A stretch of 64,000 nt of DNA, taken from assembly GCA_002687175.1 (NCBI GenBank), contig NYZP01000030.1, forward strand, positions 227-64,226, given 5' to 3'. This stretch comes from Parcubacteria group bacterium. Its GTDB lineage: Bacteria; Patescibacteriota; Patescibacteriia; Buchananbacterales; UBA6539. Numbering within the stretch: the stretch's first letter is position 1; each line of letters opens with the position of its first letter. Made by a program: the position numbers and the translations under genes. Shown one piece after another: positions 2,893 through 58,465 of the stretch. The notes under the pieces are model-generated. The model was not told the DNA's origin. It worked only from the letters and a program-made list of their open reading frames with translations, and made no database searches.

Positions 2893-2896
2893 TAGT

Positions 2897-3091
2897 ATGG
2901 ATGGAAATATTAGAGAAAATATAGAGCCAGGTCAAGAGGTTGATATTGTGTTAAAACATCATCAACACAGCGGTGAACTAACCCGAGGGATTGTCGCTGA
3001 TATTTTAACCAAATCGTTGGATCATCCTCACGGGATCAAGGTTAGATTAGAAACAGGAGAAGTTGGCAGAGTCCAAGAGATTATTGAATAA
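2897..3091 (+). CDS. YwbE-family protein (DUF2196)
   Basis: 64 aa; GIVADILT...HPHGIKVRLETGEVGRV signature. Confidence 0.65.
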   Translation: MDGNIRENIEPGQEVDIVLKHHQHSGELTRGIVADILTKSLDHPHGIKVRLETGEVGRVQEIIE

Positions 3092-3103
3092 ATATTACTA
3101 TTT

Positions 3104-3137
3104 AAAAAAAGCCCCGCCTTGAGAGACGGGGTTTTTT
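3104..3137 (+). terminator. intrinsic terminator
   Basis: GCCCCGCC-loop-GGCGGGGC? stem CCCCG/CGGGG followed by TTTTTT. Confidence 0.65.
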
Positions 3138-3283
3138 AAAGACTTTGAAAGACTAATTTATGATTTCATCCGATAGCTTTCAACCAGTCGGTTTTCTTTC
3201 AAAATCTTAATTCTTAAATATATATTTTTAAAGAATAGATCACTATACACTATCTAAGTTTTTTTGTCAATAGTGGTAGTTTT

Positions 3284-13925: not shown

Positions 13926-13954
13926 TTTTTATATAAAAAATTATCTAATTTAAC

Positions 13955-13976
13955 CCAGACCTTAAGGTCTTTTTGT
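13955..13976 (+). terminator. intrinsic terminator
   Basis: AGACC-TTAA-GGTCT followed by TTTTTGTGTTT. Confidence 0.6.
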
Positions 13977-14009
13977 GTTTGAACCCCACTCGTTTAAGGA
14001 GAATTAACC

Positions 14010-14219
14010 ATGGGAGCAGACTCAAATTGTGGATTTGAGGACGACGAAGAGGTTATTCATGAATACATGCGTATCTTGAACGTTTCCGGCCAGAGTATCG
14101 CTAGAGCTTTTTTAGACGGGCTTCCGGAAAACCAGCGTAGCCGGGTTACCCCAGACATCAATCTTCTGGTCGCGACGCGGGCCGCGCGTCTCACCGCACG
14201 GCGCCAAAGAGAAACCTGA
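14010..14219 (+). CDS. GC-rich small ORF (69 aa) with strong RBS; protein or RNA element uncertain
   Basis: AAGGAG 7 nt before ATG; about 50% GC versus about 35% flanks; own terminator downstream. Confidence 0.35.
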   Translation: MGADSNCGFEDDEEVIHEYMRILNVSGQSIARAFLDGLPENQRSRVTPDINLLVATRAARLTARRQRET

Positions 14220-14273
14220 TACCCATATCTAACTTTCTCTGCCCAGAAAATTGCGGTAATAATCTACTGCAAC

Positions 14274-14318
14274 TGCACGACTTAGAACATCGCCGTTCAA
14301 GCCGTGCTTTTTTAAGTA
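14274..14318 (+). terminator. intrinsic terminator
   Basis: GCACG...(inner GAAC-ATCGCC-GTTC)...CGTGC followed by TTTTTT. Confidence 0.5.
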
Positions 14319-14369
14319 GAATTTCATACTTTTAATTAAAGTAAAAATATTATAAAATACTAATATTAT

Positions 14370-15407
14370 ATGTTTAAAAATTTAAAGAATTTATTTAATA
14401 TTTCTCCTCGACTATGGATTCTAATTGCTGGTGCCGTTTTAACGGCTGATTTTTTTCTGCTATATTTTATAGCTACGGAGAACAGTTTTAATTGGCAATT
14501 TGGCAAAATTCGTCCAGTAGATCAAATGAATCATCGTTTGCTAGACGGTGAATTAGTAGCAAAAGATATATCATCATTAAAACCAATTGTTGTGATGATG
14601 GAGAATCACTCGCTAAGTAGACCAACTGCTGGCCTGGAAAATGCCAGTATAATTTACGAAACAATCATCGAAGGTGACATAACCAGATTTTTGGCTATTT
14701 TTGATCCAACTATTGAAGCTAAAAAAATTGGACCAGTTCGATCAGTCAGACCTTTTTTTGTCGAAATTGCCGAAGAGTGGAATCCAGTTTTATTCCATGC
14801 TGGAGGTAGCCAGGACGCTATGTATAAGTTAACTTATAGTAAAGTTGATAATGTAAACGAGATATCAGGAGATGGCATTTATTTTTGGCGTGACACTCAG
14901 CGAGCAATGCCCCATAATCTTTTTACCTCAATTAATCAAATCAAAAGAGCAATTGAAGCTAAAGAGATAGATTTGGCAGCAGATTTTGAACCTTGGTTAT
15001 TTAAAAATGATGGTCTAGACAGACCAGAGGCGGACGCAAAATTACATGAAGTAGTAAAAGTTAATTTTAACAATAATCCATTATATCAAGTTGAGTATAG
15101 GTATAATCAAGAAGATCATAACTATACTCGCTACTTGGCTGGAGAAATTCATAAAACTGACAGGGGCATATTTCTCAAAGCAAATAACATTATTTTTCAA
15201 CATGTAAATTTTGATGTTGTTGATAGCTATGGCAGATTAGATGTCAACGTCACGGGAAAAGGCCGAGCAGAGATTTTTCAAGATGGTAGGATAATTGAAG
15301 CCTATTGGCAAAAACCAAAGAACAGTAGAACCAAATTCTATGATTTGGGTAATCGAGAGATAAAATTTAACCGAGGAACTATTTGGATTGAGCTAGTTTT
15401 TAACTAA
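14370..15407 (+). CDS. DUF3048 (YerB-like) membrane-anchored protein
   Basis: 345 aa; N-terminal TM; PIVVMMENHSLSRPTAGLENASIIYETIIEGDITRFLAIF signature. Confidence 0.75.
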   Translation: MFKNLKNLFNISPRLWILIAGAVLTADFFLLYFIATENSFNWQFGKIRPVDQMNHRLLDGELVAKDISSLKPIVVMMENHSLSRPTAGLENASIIYETIIEGDITRFLAIFDPTIEAKKIGPVRSVRPFFVEIAEEWNPVLFHAGGSQDAMYKLTYSKVDNVNEISGDGIYFWRDTQRAMPHNLFTSINQIKRAIEAKEIDLAADFEPWLFKNDGLDRPEADAKLHEVVKVNFNNNPLYQVEYRYNQEDHNYTRYLAGEIHKTDRGIFLKANNIIFQHVNFDVVDSYGRLDVNVTGKGRAEIFQDGRIIEAYWQKPKNSRTKFYDLGNREIKFNRGTIWIELVFN

Positions 15408-15441
15408 AACCCTTTGTAATTAGCTTCTTATATTTGTATTC

Positions 15442-15470
15442 TTGACATGAATACTTTTTTTATTTAACAT
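15442..15470 (+). promoter_or_regulatory. sigma70-like promoter TTGACA-17-TAACAT
   Basis: perfect -35, 17 bp spacer; same -10 hexamer as the rnpB promoter. Confidence 0.5.
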
Positions 15471-15477
15471 ACTAATA

Positions 15478-15863
15478 TCACTACATTTGGAGAAGGGAGG
15501 ATAAAATCGACTTGGATGATGTAGTACAGTATCGTTTTTTTACGCGGCAGTCTTGAACTTATCTCATGCGAGGGGTACAACCATTTCCATAGTTACGAGC
15601 CAACGATGAGTTGACAGAAATTCAACAAGAATATCTGTAAAAACTTCCGACTAACGGAGTTACTATGAATTGGCCAACCCAAGGCACAGACCACTGATTC
15701 AAGACGAACGAACCCACAGGGGAATGTTATGCGCAATTTGCATTTGTGGAGTTCTGGAATGCCCAACAAGATCACTTTGGAGCGGGAAAGACCACCGCCC
15801 CTATAGATTCATTTTGGCTCGAGATTCGCACCTAAGCAATGCGTCTTCTCGGGCCACTTTTTT
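15478..15863 (+). ncRNA. unassigned structured ncRNA (~385 nt), independent transcription unit immediately upstream of dnaX
   Basis: GC-rich island between promoter 15442-15470 and terminator 15816-15863 (GGCUCGAGA...UCUCGGGCC plus U6); no plausible ORF; canonical SRP/tmRNA/6S motifs not recognised. Confidence 0.5.
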
Positions 15864-15902
15864 CTTGATTAAAATAAAAAAATAGGCTATTATTTCAATG
15901 CT

Positions 15903-17498
15903 ATGGATCTAACATTATATCGAAAATATCGCCCTCAAAGCTTTAAAGAAGTTATTGGGCAGAACCATGTTAAAACCACGGTTCAAAGTGAAATTGAAAC
16001 TGGTAAAGTGGCTCATGCTTATCTATTTTCTGGTCCTCGTGGTCTTGGTAAAACTACTATGGCCCGGCTTTTGGCAAAAGCGGTTAATTGCTTAAAAGTA
16101 AAATCTGGTAGTAGTGAACCATGTAACAGCTGTGACGCTTGTACTGAATTAATGGCGGCTAAGTCGCTAGATATCATTGAAATCGATGCGGCGTCACATA
16201 CCGGGGTTGATAATGTTCGGGAAAATATTATTGATAATGCTCGGTTTACCCCAACAAGTCGTAAATTTAAAGTTTTTATTATTGATGAAGTTCACATGCT
16301 GTCAGTATCAGCATTTAATGCCCTGTTAAAAATTTTAGAGGAACCACCAGATCATGTAATGTTTATTTTGGCTACTACCGAAATTCATAAAGTTCCAGAA
16401 ACTATTATTTCTCGTTGTCAGCACTTTGAATTCAGAAAAGTAACCGAGGCCGAAATTGTCGGTCGTTTAAATCAACTTGTTACAAAAGAAAAAAGATCAG
16501 TTGATAAATCAATTTTAGAAAATATTGCTTATTATGCAGATGGTGGTATGCGTGACGCTGAAAGTTTACTCGGTCAAATTTTATCTTTAAGTGATAAAGA
16601 AATTACCCCTGAGCAAGCCGAGTTAGTGCTACCACGATCTCGTTTTGATTTAGTTTTAGAATTTATTGCTTATTTAAGTAAAAAGGATTCAACCGCCGCG
16701 ATCGGCTTAATAAATCGGTTAGTTCAGGAAGGAATTGATTTAGAAAAGTTTAATGTTGAACTAATTGAAGTGTTAAGAAAAATTTTACTGATAAAAATAA
16801 ATCAAGATTTAAGTAAATATACTAGTGGTTTGAATAAAGATCTGGAAAAAAGAGTAACTGATATTTCTAAAGATATGACACTCAATTTTTTAGTTAGAGC
16901 AACAGAAATTTTTATGGCTAAACAGCAAGATCTTAAATTCGCCACTATTTATCAACTGCCATTAGAATTAGCAATTTTAGAAATAATTGGTTCCAACCAG
17001 GAAGAAGTTAATGATAATGATAACGATGTAGATTCATCAAATAATAATAAACCTCTAGCAACACCTAAAGTAGATAATAAGATTACAGAGAGGCCAAAAC
17101 CAGAAGTGAAAAAACAAGTTAATAGTGCTGTTGCTGTCAGACTAACTTTAGATCAAATTAAAGAAAAATGGGGAGAAGTTTTACAAAATTTAAAGCAGTA
17201 TAATCAAAGCCTAGCTTCAGCTTTAAAGATTGGCCAACCGGGATCGGTAAAAGATGATGGAACACTAGAGGTTTGCTTTAAACATAAATTTCATCAAGAA
17301 AGAATTAACGACACCAAAAACAAAAAGATTTTAGAAAGTGTCCTAGAAGAAATTTTTGGGGTTAAGCTAATTGTTAGAACATTAGTTGTTAAAGAACTGC
17401 CTGATAAGGAAGTCATAGTCGAAGCGGTTGCTGAAAAGCCAGCCGATGATTCCTTGGATAATATTTTAAAAACATTTGGCGGTCAGGTTGTAGATTAG
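15903..17498 (+). CDS. dnaX: DNA polymerase III subunit gamma/tau
   Basis: 531 aa; GPRGLGKTT Walker A, zinc Cys cluster CNSCDAC, SRC arginine finger. Confidence 0.9.
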   Translation: MDLTLYRKYRPQSFKEVIGQNHVKTTVQSEIETGKVAHAYLFSGPRGLGKTTMARLLAKAVNCLKVKSGSSEPCNSCDACTELMAAKSLDIIEIDAASHTGVDNVRENIIDNARFTPTSRKFKVFIIDEVHMLSVSAFNALLKILEEPPDHVMFILATTEIHKVPETIISRCQHFEFRKVTEAEIVGRLNQLVTKEKRSVDKSILENIAYYADGGMRDAESLLGQILSLSDKEITPEQAELVLPRSRFDLVLEFIAYLSKKDSTAAIGLINRLVQEGIDLEKFNVELIEVLRKILLIKINQDLSKYTSGLNKDLEKRVTDISKDMTLNFLVRATEIFMAKQQDLKFATIYQLPLELAILEIIGSNQEEVNDNDNDVDSSNNNKPLATPKVDNKITERPKPEVKKQVNSAVAVRLTLDQIKEKWGEVLQNLKQYNQSLASALKIGQPGSVKDDGTLEVCFKHKFHQERINDTKNKKILESVLEEIFGVKLIVRTLVVKELPDKEVIVEAVAEKPADDSLDNILKTFGGQVVD

Positions 17499-17682
17499 AT
17501 AGACAGTAAATATTCGGGGATCGTCCACCTACGCCAAAGCTTCGGTGGACAAGTCTAACGGCTTAGCCCCATAACTCGGGGATCGTCTAATCCCCGACAT
17601 AAAGTCGGGGCAGGGTCCGGACGCCAGACATGGTTTGTCCTGTCCAAACTTCGGAGATCGTCTAACGTCCCCGCCCCATAAC

Positions 17683-17753
17683 TCGGGGATCGTCTAATGG
17701 TAGGACGCCTGGTTCTGGTCCAGGTAATCTAGGTTCGAATCCTGGTCCCCGAG
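17683..17753 (+). tRNA. tRNA-Gln (anticodon CUG), no encoded CCA
   Basis: cloverleaf folds by hand: acceptor UCGGGGA/UCCCCGA with U1-A72 and G73 (bacterial Gln identity), D arm GUCU/GGAC, anticodon stem CCUGG/CCAGG loop UUCUGGU, T arm CUAGG-UUCGAAU-CCUGG. Confidence 0.85.
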
Positions 17754-17938
17754 TTATGGGGCGGGATAAATAGGACGCCAGGTGGCGCCTGCCCCGCCGC
17801 ATGGCGGGGGATCCTGGTAATCGGGGTTCGCGCGAAGCGCCTGTCTCCGAGGCTTGTACAGGAATCATGCTTGTCCGCCAAAGCCTGGAGGGCGTAGGTG
17901 GTTCCCTGAGCCAATAAATAATAAATAAATAAAATTTA

Positions 17939-19604: not shown

Positions 19605-20423
19605 ATGATGTTTAATAAAAAAGTATTAATCGCCACGGTATTCATTTTCGCCCTAGGTGCTTACATCACAGTGGTAAATGCTAGTCATTCATAGGGAAAT
19701 TATCACTGGGGAAGAACAACAAGTACTTTTACCCTTGAGCTTGGAGACAATCTTTCTTCAGATTGGGATTCTTATTTAGTAACTACCAGCAGTGACTGGA
19801 GCCAATCAACTGCTCTTGATACAATTATAAAATCAGGTAAAGGTAAAAGAAACTGTCGAGCCACTGATGGTCGTGCTGAAGTATGTAATAGCAGTTATGG
19901 TAATAATGGTTGGTTAGGAATAGCTCAAATTTGGATTAGCGGCGAACACATCACTAAAGGTGTTGTTAAAGTTAATGATTCTTATTTTGATACTCCTACC
20001 TATGATACTCCAGCTTGGAGAAATGTAGTTATGTGTCAGGAGGTTGGACACATCCTTGGTCTTGGTCACGTAGATGAAGATTTCAATAACCCACCATCAG
20101 GTACCTGCATGGATTATTCAGCTGATCCGGAACCAAATCAACATCCAAATCAACATGATTATGACATGTTAGAAATAATCTACGCTCACCTTGATAGTGT
20201 TGATACCTATAAATCTTCTGATGACGATGGCGGTGGTAACGGTAATAATGGTAGAGGCGGTGGTAGAGGTAAGCCAGAAGGAGTTGGCAACAACATGGAC
20301 TTAAATGACCCATCAGCTTGGGGACAATCTATTAAAGAAGATGCCCAAGGAAATAAATCTTTATTTGTAAAGGATTTAGGTAATGGTGAAAAATTATTCA
20401 CCTTTGTTACCTGGATTCAATAA
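19605..20423 (+). pseudogene. secreted metzincin-like protein interrupted by in-frame TAG (19692-19694); catalytic motif QEVGHILGLGH
   Basis: signal peptide MMFNKKVLIATVFIFALGAYITVVNA, then TAG, then a 243-codon stop-free continuation in the same frame to 20423; HExxHxxGxxH-like motif with first His replaced by Gln (CAG). Confidence 0.55.
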
Positions 20424-20452
20424 GTTGATAGCTTAAATTAAAAATCCTTAAA

Positions 20453-20482
20453 CAGCCCGCTATATTCTAGCGGGCTGTTTTT
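20453..20482 (+). terminator. intrinsic terminator
   Basis: 10-bp perfect stem CAGCCCGCTA/TAGCGGGCTG plus TTTTT. Confidence 0.7.
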
Positions 20483-20573
20483 ATATCATTGACAATTTAG
20501 AAAAAATATAATAGTATAATTTATCGTTCATTGAATGTTAAATACTACTCAACTTGGAAAGGAGGTATACCCA

Positions 20574-21131
20574 ATGCCTACCTATAGGATGATTCGCTGT
20601 GGCACAGACTATTCTTTTGTGATTGTAGTAACACCAGCAGATACTGACCCTATGTCAGAGGATGGTACTTTTTATCGGTACCTTAGGGAAGATGACGGAG
20701 ATGACCCAGCAGTTTTTTATGAAATAGAAAGACTAACAGCCGTTGGTTATTTTGGTGGCATATATGACGGATCTCGTGCTTTTGCACCAAGAAAACGTTT
20801 CGAATCCCTTGACGCCATATTGGAATTTATCCATGGTGATGACCATTCAATACGAGTCAAGGTTACAGCAGATGAAGCTGGAGAAGTGCTTGTTGGTTAC
20901 GGATATCTTCAAGAAGCTGTGATTGTATATATTGTAAGAGCACCTGACGGTAAATTAAGGAGTAGAAAAAACCCAGAAGAAAAGCCATCTGAAAAAGAAA
21001 TTTCTGAGTGGGGCGGACAGTTGATAGTTGAAGGTAACCATCACAAAATTGTACTTGATGATGGTAGGGAAGTTTACGATTTCCAAGTTCACTGGGATGA
21101 AGTTCTTGAAGGAGAGGAGGAACACGTATGA
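20574..21131 (+). CDS. hypothetical protein, GC-elevated
   Basis: strong RBS AAAGGAGG 8 nt upstream of ATG 20574; about 42% GC. Confidence 0.55.
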   Translation: MPTYRMIRCGTDYSFVIVVTPADTDPMSEDGTFYRYLREDDGDDPAVFYEIERLTAVGYFGGIYDGSRAFAPRKRFESLDAILEFIHGDDHSIRVKVTADEAGEVLVGYGYLQEAVIVYIVRAPDGKLRSRKNPEEKPSEKEISEWGGQLIVEGNHHKIVLDDGREVYDFQVHWDEVLEGEEEHV

Positions 21132-50116: not shown

Positions 50117-50144
50117 TTGACAGCATATTTTTTTTACTTATACT
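50117..50144 (+). promoter_or_regulatory. sigma70-like promoter TTGACA-16-TATACT
   Basis: immediately after DHFR-like stop; drives the GC-rich RNA below. Confidence 0.45.
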
Positions 50145-50150
50145 CTGGTT

Positions 50151-50346
50151 ATGGAATGTGTCGTTTGGTAGTGCTGGCGCGCAATGCCGGTGGAATACGC
50201 GATGATGACCAGATCCTTCAGGGATAAGATGAGAGACCGGCCAAGGCCTGGTCTTACTCGGCGCTAGATGAACCGGTAAAAAAGCCCCGACGACGTTAAC
50301 ATTTCCTGCCCTAGCTGATATCCAGTCAGTTGGGGCTATTTTTTTA
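50151..50346 (+). ncRNA. unassigned structured ncRNA (~200 nt) with own promoter and terminator
   Basis: GC-rich, multiple hairpins (CUGGCGCGC...GCGAUGAUGACCAG; AGACCGGCCAAGGCCUGGUCU), terminator AGCCCCGAC...GUUGGGGCU plus U8 at 50283-50346; no ORF. Confidence 0.45.
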
Positions 50347-50347
50347 C

Positions 50348-50376
50348 TTGACTTTTCGGCAATAAAAGAATATTAT
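50348..50376 (+). promoter_or_regulatory. sigma70-like promoter TTGACT-17-TATTAT
   Basis: upstream of 50432 gene which has RBS AAAAAGGAGG. Confidence 0.45.
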
Positions 50377-50431
50377 AAATTTGGTTTAAGATTCTATTGG
50401 GGAAAGGTGAGAAGCCAAAAAGGAGGCGGTA

Positions 50432-50734
50432 ATGGTTCAAATTCTGATCAGTTACTGGTACCTGTTCCTGCTGGCCATCATCCTTATACTAGGATTTCTT
50501 TGGCCAGGTTGGTTGACCAGATTGGCAACCAAAAACAACATTGTCCTTTATCGAGCAATATCGAAAAAGGGTGGATGGAAAATACTTTGGATAATCCCAT
50601 TTTTAGGCATCCCGCTAATACTCAGGTCAATACTGAAAAGTGTACACCGAAAAGAGCGTAAAAAGGAAAGATGGACTGATGCCGATGGTGGATTAACAGA
50701 AGAGGGTTGGGGAAACAGCAGTAAAAAAAGTTAA
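50432..50734 (+). CDS. small membrane protein (2 TM) with basic C-terminus
   Basis: 100 aa; strong RBS; overlapping 84-aa ORF 50407-50661 rejected. Confidence 0.55.
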   Translation: MVQILISYWYLFLLAIILILGFLWPGWLTRLATKNNIVLYRAISKKGGWKILWIIPFLGIPLILRSILKSVHRKERKKERWTDADGGLTEEGWGNSSKKS

Positions 50735-58128: not shown

Positions 58129-58389
58129 GAGAAAAAGTAGAGTTATATTTTATTGGTGAGTACATCTTACACTACTTTACCCGTCCATTTCAAGTGTTTT
58201 TAAACCAAAACTTGGCCACATATTATCCACCCCGCCTGTTTAGTAGCAACCGTCTTGCCAAAAAGCCCTTTTCTTGTTAGTATTGAATTTGTTTAAAACA
58301 TTACCGTGGGGCGTAAGCGCCCCTAGCCATTAATCAATGCAAGCACAAGAAAAGTAACAGTTGTGGCTAAACAAAATTAATAGAATCGT

Positions 58390-58465
58390 GGGGCGTTAGC
58401 TCAGTTGGTAGAGCAGCAGCCTTTTAAGCTGAATGTCGGGGGTTCGAATCCCTCACGCCCCACCA
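58390..58465 (+). tRNA. tRNA-Lys (anticodon UUU) with encoded CCA
   Basis: GGGGCGU/ACGCCCC acceptor, D arm GCUC-AGUUGGUA-GAGC, anticodon loop CUUUUAA, T arm GGGGG-UUCGAAU-CCCUC, discriminator A, CCA. Confidence 0.85.

Follow-up and report, generated by a model that had tools for sequence, protein, structure and literature searches.

The 64,000-nucleotide (nt) stretch of contig NYZP01000030.1 analysed here, referred to as the window, contains a gap of 495 nt (15408-15902) between a DUF3048-family gene and dnaX. Both genes lie on the + strand, as do nearly all genes of the window. Within this gap is an element that we describe, with modest confidence and from sequence evidence alone, as a candidate non-coding RNA (ncRNA). 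We give an even chance to the reading that the element is a lineage-specific, independently transcribed and structured ncRNA gene on the + strand, whose product would be an orphan RNA of ~387 nt. The gap is among the largest in the window, which is ~87 % coding and ~13 % intergenic, and no known RNA accounts for it. The host is an uncultured marine bacterium of the Patescibacteria, or Candidate Phyla Radiation (CPR), near 'Candidatus Buchananbacteria'. An identical DnaX is recorded in a Tara Oceans assembly, in a JGI metagenome and in an NCBI metagenome-assembled genome labelled Parcubacteria group bacterium, and the nearest non-identical DnaX proteins (69 % identity) are named Buchananbacteria or Patescibacteria.

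Transcription signals and predicted fold of the element

The original prediction, made from the letters of the window, had proposed a promoter of the form TTGACA-17-TAACAT whose -10 hexamer is shared with rnpB. This promoter, of the sigma-70 type, is present exactly, with the -35 hexamer at 15442-15447, a 17-nt spacer and the -10 hexamer at 15465-15470, and its likeness to the promoter of rnpB, a stable-RNA gene, extends to both hexamers and to the spacing. The window has two exact copies of this 12-base pattern, compared to 0.03 expected, and two copies were found in 0 of 100 shuffles. The copy outside the element lies on the minus strand (38718-38690) and serves as the rnpB promoter, since helix P1 of RNase P begins a few nt past its -10. 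Of the 9 promoter-like sites in the window whose TTGACA is perfect, 8 fall between genes and are directed at a gene, even though intergenic sequence is scarce. The -35 hexamer of the element sits inside the loop of a small hairpin (15436-15454), which together with the T7 tract behind it probably ends transcription of the DUF3048 gene upstream; relatives carry a terminator and T-run at the equivalent place.

The strong terminator with a U6 tail that had been proposed for the 3' end was likewise borne out. It represents the strongest intergenic combination of hairpin and T-run across the 64-kb window, and a stock terminator scan passed over its hairpin (15815-15856) only because the loop is longer than 8 nt. 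As judged from these signals, the 5' end of the transcript would lie ~7 nt past the -10, at 15477, and its 3' end in the T6 tract. The dnaX promoter follows immediately, and is homologous to a promoter that is conserved in relatives (CTTGCYTAAA...GAGTTARAAT). Since dnaX keeps this conserved promoter right after the terminator, the element is not a dnaX leader.

The element lacks a credible open reading frame (ORF), in agreement with what had been claimed for it. Codon-usage scores of its internal ORFs range from -0.15 to -0.41 per codon, compared to +0.25 to +0.51 for real genes, and neither Pfam nor PDB yielded a match in any frame. A 71-amino-acid (aa) ORF within the element had no real homologue among 1.84 billion representative proteins. 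On the rationale that gene callers might have translated homologous loci, protein space was also searched with the spurious ORFs: the sole match was to 17 repetitive residues, and a second search returned no candidates. The P-loop-like string FGAGKTT in frame +2 was considered as the trace of a decayed gene and rejected, with Pfam (E <= 10) and PDB empty for all stop-to-stop fragments. A promoter and a Rho-independent terminator of its own, combined with no coding potential, are the generic hallmarks of a stand-alone ncRNA.

The original description of the element as GC-rich holds in part. Its guanine-plus-cytosine (GC) content is raised above the window mean of 0.347, but the rise is modest, to 0.44 for the element as a whole and 0.46-0.47 for its 3' half, which resembles the RNase P RNA of this genome (0.42) and several coding islands. 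Other non-coding gaps of the genome have a GC content of 0.31-0.39, and the higher value of the element (0.44-0.47) is not what would be expected of neutral DNA long exposed to AT pressure. The claim of many local hairpins fared similarly: the central rod and the terminator hairpin stand out from shuffled sequences, whereas the 5' hairpin and the 3' domain are at chance level (Table 1). The rod is closed by a helix formed between GUCUUGAA (15550-15557) and UUCAAGAC (15698-15705). It is predicted to consist of an irregular series of 3-5-bp helices with A-rich internal loops between them, and to end in a four-way junction bearing three small hairpins with the 5-nt loops GAUGA, AACAA and ACUAA. 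By folding z-score the rod ranks 5th of 580 same-length segments of the window; most of the others near the top of the ranking fall in intergenic gaps or in known RNA genes (tRNA-Gln, 3' rnpB). The 5' hairpin has a 30-nt loop that holds the purine tract GGAGAAGGGAGGAU.

Table 1. Coordinates of the element, its neighbours and the rnpB gene in the window (z, folding z-score relative to shuffled sequences)
Feature	Position	Strand	Evidence or remark
DUF3048-family gene	14370-15407	+	upstream neighbour, stop codon 15405-15407
Small hairpin GUAUUC/GAAUAC (15436-15441 / 15449-15454) with T7 (15455-15461)	15436..15461	+	-5.2 kcal/mol, z = -2.87
Sigma-70-type promoter TTGACA-N17-TAACAT	15442..15470	+	10/12 consensus matches, perfect -35
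Predicted transcript, ~387 nt	15477..15863	+	from promoter and terminator
5' hairpin, 8-bp AU-rich stem ACUACAUU/GAUGUAGU	15480..15525	+	z = -0.35, chance level
Internal U7 tract, between 5' hairpin and rod	15535..15541	+	sequence
Central rod domain (165 nt)	15546..15710	+	-44.9 kcal/mol, z = -4.44, 0/200 shuffles
Bipartite hairpin GAAC-CCACAG...AUGCG-loop-UGCAU-UUGUGG-GUUC	15710..15754	+	whole 3' domain z = -0.48
Small GC hairpin GG-A-GCGG / CCGC-C-CC, 9-nt loop GAAAGACCA	15779..15800	+	fold prediction
Intrinsic terminator, 10 + 4 bp hairpin (15815-15856), then T6 (15858-15863)	15815..15863	+	-20.8 kcal/mol, z = -5.85
dnaX promoter TTGATT-N17-TATTAT	15865..15893	+	abuts T-run; right-hand boundary, outside element
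dnaX (531 aa)	15903..17498	+	downstream neighbour
rnpB promoter	38718-38690	minus	exact TTGACA-N17-TAACAT
rnpB P1, 5' strand AUUGUCUAAG	38685-38676	minus	pairs with RNase P 3' end CUUGGACAAU, 37944-37935
rnpB P3, 5' strand CCCCCCACUUUCU	38660-38648	minus	13-bp perfect helix with AGAAAGUGGGGGG, -24.6 kcal/mol
84-aa GIY-YIG ORF in P3	38647-38393	minus	Pfam PF01541, E = 1.5e-15
rnpB P3, 3' strand AGAAAGUGGGGGG	38384-38372	minus	directly ahead of P4 GAGGAAAGUCC

Membership in a known RNA family was assessed by several means. A search of Rfam, both at gathering thresholds and at E <= 10, placed the element in no known family and returned just chance matches to small nucleolar RNAs and microRNAs (13-21 bits). 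Since a search across 4,227 families inflates the Rfam E-values, a dedicated model of signal recognition particle (SRP) RNA was made from 11 small SRP RNAs and applied to the whole window with filters off. It found nothing in the element, and its best score in the window was 9.5 bits, for trivial hairpins elsewhere. ARAGORN, run for standard and permuted transfer-messenger RNA (tmRNA), reported only two tRNAs in the window and neither a tRNA-like domain nor a tag in the element, while a six-frame view of the element displayed no tag-like frame of the ...AA-stop type. SRP RNA, tmRNA and 6S RNA were not found elsewhere in the 64-kb window either; in a control locus, L068, a genuine 6S RNA was detected. 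These results agree with the original prediction, which had noticed the lack of SRP, tmRNA and 6S hallmarks and had named a confident assignment by cmscan as the result that would make the element an ordinary feature; no such assignment was obtained.

Under the ncRNA reading, transcription would start near 15477 from a strong housekeeping-type promoter with the rnpB hexamers. Once folded, the RNA would comprise the 5' hairpin, the 165-nt rod topped by a junction of three hairpins, a pair of smaller hairpins and a terminator hairpin of very high stability, and it would end in the U6 tract. Given that no complementarity was found between the element and other parts of the window, that the rod is irregular with A-rich loops, and that dnaX has its own promoter, the RNA would most likely function in trans as a protein-binding or scaffold RNA, with a protein as its putative partner, rather than as a base-pairing small RNA or a cis regulator of dnaX. 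In its fullest form, this reading holds that an undescribed, lineage-restricted RNA gene of ~390 nt was acquired as a promoter-RNA-terminator cassette at the usual slot of ffs, the SRP RNA gene, and that it specifies, from an rnpB-type promoter, a new protein-binding or scaffold RNA; the fullest form we put slightly below an even chance.

Relatives of the locus and competing explanations

The original prediction had pointed out that the position directly 5' of dnaX is where SRP RNA sits in many bacteria. This is correct outside the CPR, since 13 of the 15 non-CPR loci examined have an SRP RNA immediately 5' of dnaX and in the same orientation, but not within the Patescibacteria, where none of 34 loci has an SRP RNA near dnaX. 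What most of these 34 loci do conserve is a tRNA just 3' of dnaX. The eight closest relatives, fetched via their DnaX proteins (65-69 % identity), all keep the gene order ftsW, 111-aa gene, rplY, (DUF3048), dnaX. In seven of them the spacing ahead of dnaX is 104, 258, 103, 146, 125, 54 and 221 nt, respectively, while in the eighth (L165) the slot is occupied by an unrelated 356-aa gene. The short gaps consist of an upstream terminator whose T-run meets the conserved dnaX promoter, and the window has the matching junction of T-run and promoter at 15856-15893, directly past the terminator of the element. Because the gaps of the relatives are short and have the same junction, the element corresponds to an insertion of ~400 nt upstream of the ancestral dnaX promoter. 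Thus, by comparison with these loci, it is a lineage-specific insertion between an upstream terminator and the conserved dnaX promoter, and not an ancestral housekeeping gene. The dnaX 5' untranslated region (UTR) of relative L164 (2160-2290) contains, after the conserved promoter, a long hairpin with an imperfect ~20-bp stem (CCCGGTAGTGATCCCGCCCT ... AGGGCGGGACTACTACCGGG) that is unrelated in sequence to the element.

A number of observations weigh against a functional RNA gene on the + strand. The element is absent from the syntenic slot in all eight nearest relatives. Searches with nhmmer, blastn and tblastx over 170 loci returned only two identical copies, and a covariance model of the rod, applied to 754 kb, recovered the rod itself only. 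Blastn against phages and plasmids found nothing but one 23-nt chance match, and three 22-23-mer probes had 0 matches in viral contigs; scans of genome contigs and metagenome contigs were made with DnaX, not element DNA, as the query. The other copies of the element are 100 % identical to it, and over 5 kb their sequences depart from that of the window at just 3 positions, namely 2 mismatches and 1 gap. Since the flanks are near-identical in these independently assembled copies, identity of the element is uninformative on constraint. With no homologue there is no alignment, and hence no support from conservation or covariation. Absence of conservation was an outcome that the original prediction had itself counted against the element, and as far as we searched, it is what we found; function therefore rests on single-sequence evidence, which limits our confidence. 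Likewise, we found nothing in the literature on CPR ncRNAs near dnaX. The transcript as a whole is just slightly more stable than shuffled sequences (z = -2.0), and folding beyond chance is confined to the rod and the terminator, about half of its length, with z = -0.35 and -0.48 for the 5' and 3' parts. Finally, the rod has a lower minimum free energy on the minus strand (-52.6 kcal/mol) than on the plus strand (-44.9 kcal/mol). At the 5 positions where its arms mismatch by a transition, the minus strand forms a G.U pair in every case and the plus strand is left with A.C, and G.U pairs number 7 on the minus strand compared to 1 on the plus strand, a bias which taken alone favours a minus-strand RNA.

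That bias is the core of the case for a functional RNA of ~165-390 nt transcribed from the minus strand, antisense to nothing annotated and with the rod as its core. We consider such an RNA quite improbable, although the z-score of the whole region is also lower on the minus strand (-3.0 versus -2.0 on the plus strand) and a weak promoter-like site (9/12) is present at 15898-15871. The G.U bias was rejected as proof of a minus-strand RNA because it represents the same data as the A-rich loops of the + strand, where the same rod positions form internal loops; it is outweighed, though the conflict remains, and a ratio of 5:0 amounts merely to p ~0.06. Unpaired bases of the rod are 47 % A and 15 % U on the + strand, compared to 47 % and 23 % in sense RNase P RNA, whereas on the minus strand U predominates among them (44 % U, 20 % A), in contrast to RNase P RNA. 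Moreover, the strong promoter and the only good terminator face the + strand, no minus-strand terminator bounds the region, and nearly all genes here are on the + strand. Promoter, terminator and the RNase P-like composition of unpaired bases thus favour the + strand. A + strand RNA could in principle be a housekeeping RNA (SRP RNA at the ancestral ffs-dnaX position, tmRNA or a 6S-like RNA) that is highly divergent and hidden by lineage-specific insertions, an explanation that we regard as extremely improbable. It would account for a position and strand like those of SRP RNA in 13 of 15 non-CPR loci, for a size within the range of tmRNA and large SRP RNA, and for the promoter in common with rnpB. 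The genome does tolerate big insertions in rnpB (a GIY-YIG ORF in P3 and ~90 nt in the core), such that rnpB nearly escapes the models, and the 64-kb window has no SRP RNA, tmRNA or 6S RNA elsewhere; however, if the genome measures ~1 Mb, chance alone would be expected to leave a stretch of 64 kb without them. The negative Rfam (even at E <= 10), dedicated SRP and ARAGORN results described above all count against this explanation, as does the lack of a GNRA-capped helix-8 motif, with none of the three apical loops being a tetraloop. In addition, a housekeeping RNA would be expected in relatives with the same gene order and DnaX proteins of 65-69 % identity, yet the slot is empty in all eight and their flanks yielded no match in sequence or structure. 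Of the two alternatives that the original prediction left standing, a divergent known RNA is therefore disfavoured and a lineage-specific ncRNA favoured.

The principal rival to the ncRNA reading, possible if on balance unlikely, is that the element is recently inserted foreign or selfish DNA, or the remnant of a decayed cassette, and has no function of its own. The rod would then amount to a DNA palindrome, though not a perfect one, that arrived with the insert, the promoter would have arisen in part by coincidence, with its -35 in the loop of the native DUF3048 terminator, and the strong terminator would be either the ancestral terminator of the upstream gene or part of the cassette. Consistent with this explanation, the slot is variable in the clade (54-258 nt in seven relatives, and the unrelated 356-aa gene in L165), the adjacent rplY-DUF3048 gap has also gained a GC-rich (0.52) cassette with a 69-aa ORF, and the element is an orphan in all searches. 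Folding of the rod reaches the same significance on either strand, and that of the 5' and 3' parts stays at chance level. The GC content, being higher than the genome average, is in keeping with recent acquisition from a foreign source, although it also lies well above that of other non-coding gaps in this AT-rich genome. An 8-nt direct repeat, ACTTTTTT, flanks 403 nt, the excision of which would leave ~92 nt, comparable to the 103-nt gap of relative L166. As transposon ends, however, this repeat was rejected, since it consists of two terminator tails, and the accompanying 'inverted repeat' of T-run and A-run is low-complexity terminator and promoter sequence. The latter is the only 'terminal inverted repeat' in support of a miniature inverted-repeat transposable element, and it is not convincing; the element is single-copy in the window. 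Also opposed to a foreign cassette are the absence of any decayed-ORF trace in every frame, the lack of phage, plasmid and viral-contig matches, the exact pair of rnpB hexamers, which is unlikely to be fortuitous, and the compactness of a genome (~87 % coding) that would not be expected to long retain 400 nt of strongly transcribed junk. A cis-acting or coding role strikes us as improbable. Here the element would extend the DUF3048 transcript as a long 3' UTR, tune dnaX as an attenuator reached by read-through, or encode a tiny peptide, either the UUG-start 14-aa MDDVVQYRFFTRQS or AUG-AUG-UAG, behind a tract resembling a Shine-Dalgarno (SD) sequence. The hairpin after the DUF3048 stop is weak (-5.2 kcal/mol), which makes read-through into the element plausible; GGAGAAGGGAGG can pair with ~10 nt of a generic 16S 3' end (-16.1 kcal/mol); and the 14-codon ORF ends within the closing helix of the rod. 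Nevertheless, dnaX has its own conserved promoter past a very strong terminator, relatives express dnaX without such an element, and a peptide would cover <15 % of the element. The SD-like tract, 11-15 nt from the candidate start codons, was rejected as a ribosome-binding or leader-peptide signal because it is uninformative in a genome that makes almost no use of SD sequences (median predicted pairing -1.8 kcal/mol, with <= -6 kcal/mol in 8 of 54 genes), and in which 35 sites of the window reach <= -12 kcal/mol. The three minor readings (minus-strand RNA, divergent housekeeping RNA, and a cis-acting or coding role) are each contradicted by one direct test or more.

Other RNA features of the window

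The rnpB gene, which spans about 38686-37935 on the minus strand, is itself atypical. Its Rfam RNase P match (38395-37937, minus strand, 120 bits) begins ~295 nt downstream of the promoter copy and is without P3. The two strands of the missing helix lie on either side of an ORF for a GIY-YIG protein, and the 5' strand of P1 lies further upstream (Table 1). Thus, the RNase P RNA gene (38718-37935, minus strand) appears to be interrupted by a protein gene, and the P3 loop is an unusual location for a nuclease ORF. In addition, an AT-rich insertion of ~90 nt is present in a core hairpin (around 38250-38160).

Both tRNA genes of the window have tRNA-like sequence nearby. The tRNA-Gln (17682-17754, + strand) lies inside a GC-rich (0.55-0.62) island of ~400 nt (17505-17912, 408 nt) with a predicted folding energy of -217 kcal/mol and z = -10.2. 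Its acceptor stem is extended by at least 12 bp (CCCGCCCCAUAAC / GUUAUGGGGCGGG), and further helices, arranged concentrically, pair 17513-17555 with 17870-17910. Within the island, the 5' half of the tRNA recurs in partial copies (around 17512, 17563-17590 and 17650) and the 3' half in a degenerate, only similar copy (around 17775-17850), while relatives have a plain tRNA at this place. Upstream of tRNA-Lys (58390-58465, + strand), a partial copy of the tRNA 5' end at 58300-58330 forms a hairpin (GUGGGGCGUAAGCGCCCC), echoing the copies around tRNA-Gln.

Further gaps between promoters and genes may hold other RNAs, and three regions carry promoter or folding signals. At 50117-50431 (+ strand), a near-consensus promoter of the form TTGACA-16-TATACT (11/12) lies 288 nt 5' of the gene at 50432-50734, which has the strongest SD sequence in the window. 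The leader ahead of this gene reaches a GC content of 0.55 and has no Rfam match at gathering thresholds; it may represent a riboswitch, a leader or another ncRNA. The most structured 165-nt segment of the scan, 20386-20550 (+ strand, z = -7.1), spans the short gap between the genes at 20031-20423 and 20535-21131, and this gap holds a promoter with a perfect TTGACA (20489-20517). In the gap 2893-3283, a strong promoter-like site on the minus strand, TTGACA-17-TATAGT (11/12), is followed after ~130 nt by a GC hairpin with a T-run (CCCCGTCTCTCAAGGCGGGG), and the next 2.3 kb of the minus strand are without a gene; this region (3270-3110, minus strand) may be a small RNA unit.

The 69-aa ORF between rplY and the DUF3048 gene (14010-14219, + strand, within the gap 13926-14369) has a strong AAGGAG ribosome-binding site and a GC content of 0.52. 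It is without a Pfam match, and the public assembly annotates it as a gene. Since the rplY-DUF3048 spacing in relatives is just 43-116 nt, the ORF represents a second lineage-specific insertion beside the element.

Significance and comparison with known RNAs

To our knowledge, the tiny genomes of CPR/Patescibacteria have almost no characterised ncRNAs beyond rRNA, tRNA and RNase P RNA. If the ncRNA reading is correct, a strongly promoted orphan RNA of ~400 nt would be among the few candidates for lineage-specific RNA biology in the CPR. The surroundings of the element are of interest as well. The linkage of ffs and dnaX, widespread in bacteria, is missing from all 34 Patescibacteria loci examined, and the regions around RNA genes have been remodelled in this genome, as seen in the GIY-YIG ORF within P3 of RNase P RNA and in the hyper-structured tRNA-Gln island.

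The element shares with SRP RNA (RF00169, small; RF01854, large) a stand-alone gene, a same-strand site directly 5' of dnaX and the predominance of a rod-shaped helix. In contrast to SRP RNA, it is without the motif of domain IV (helix 8), in which a GNRA cap tops a helix whose symmetric and asymmetric loops are conserved (..AGG..GGAA..AGCA..), its apical loops all being of 5 nt; it is also ~390 nt long, has a three-hairpin apex and is missing from the slot in all close relatives. Length (~360-400 nt), a promoter and terminator of its own and a multi-domain fold are features in common with tmRNA (ssrA; RF00023 and permuted forms), but the tRNA-like domain, T-arm, CCA end and tag reading frame of tmRNA are all lacking. 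RNA-polymerase-binding RNAs of the 6S/Ms1 type (RF00013) are likewise stand-alone, have a promoter typical of abundant RNAs and form an irregular rod. The rod of the element differs in having small internal loops, no large central bubble and a branched apex, which, as features of a single-sequence prediction, make for a weak exclusion; some ~220 nt lie outside the rod and there is no 6S match in Rfam. This class has intrinsically low sequence conservation and is consequently the hardest to exclude.

Stand-alone regulatory RNAs of 300-500 nt can be organised as strings of hairpins, as in RNAIII of Staphylococcus. Like RNAs of this type, the element has a sigma-70 promoter, a 5' hairpin, independent hairpin domains and a Rho-independent terminator, is lineage-restricted and is without deep homologues. 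Unlike them, it is known from sequence alone, and it has no target complementarity in the window and no embedded conserved peptide. The rnpB gene of the same genome has identical promoter hexamers and spacing, a similar GC content and A-rich unpaired bases; it differs in having a clear Rfam match (120 bits), and the two share no sequence similarity beyond the promoter. If real, the element is a stand-alone bacterial ncRNA gene of a familiar kind, in a lineage with an essentially unexplored RNA repertoire.

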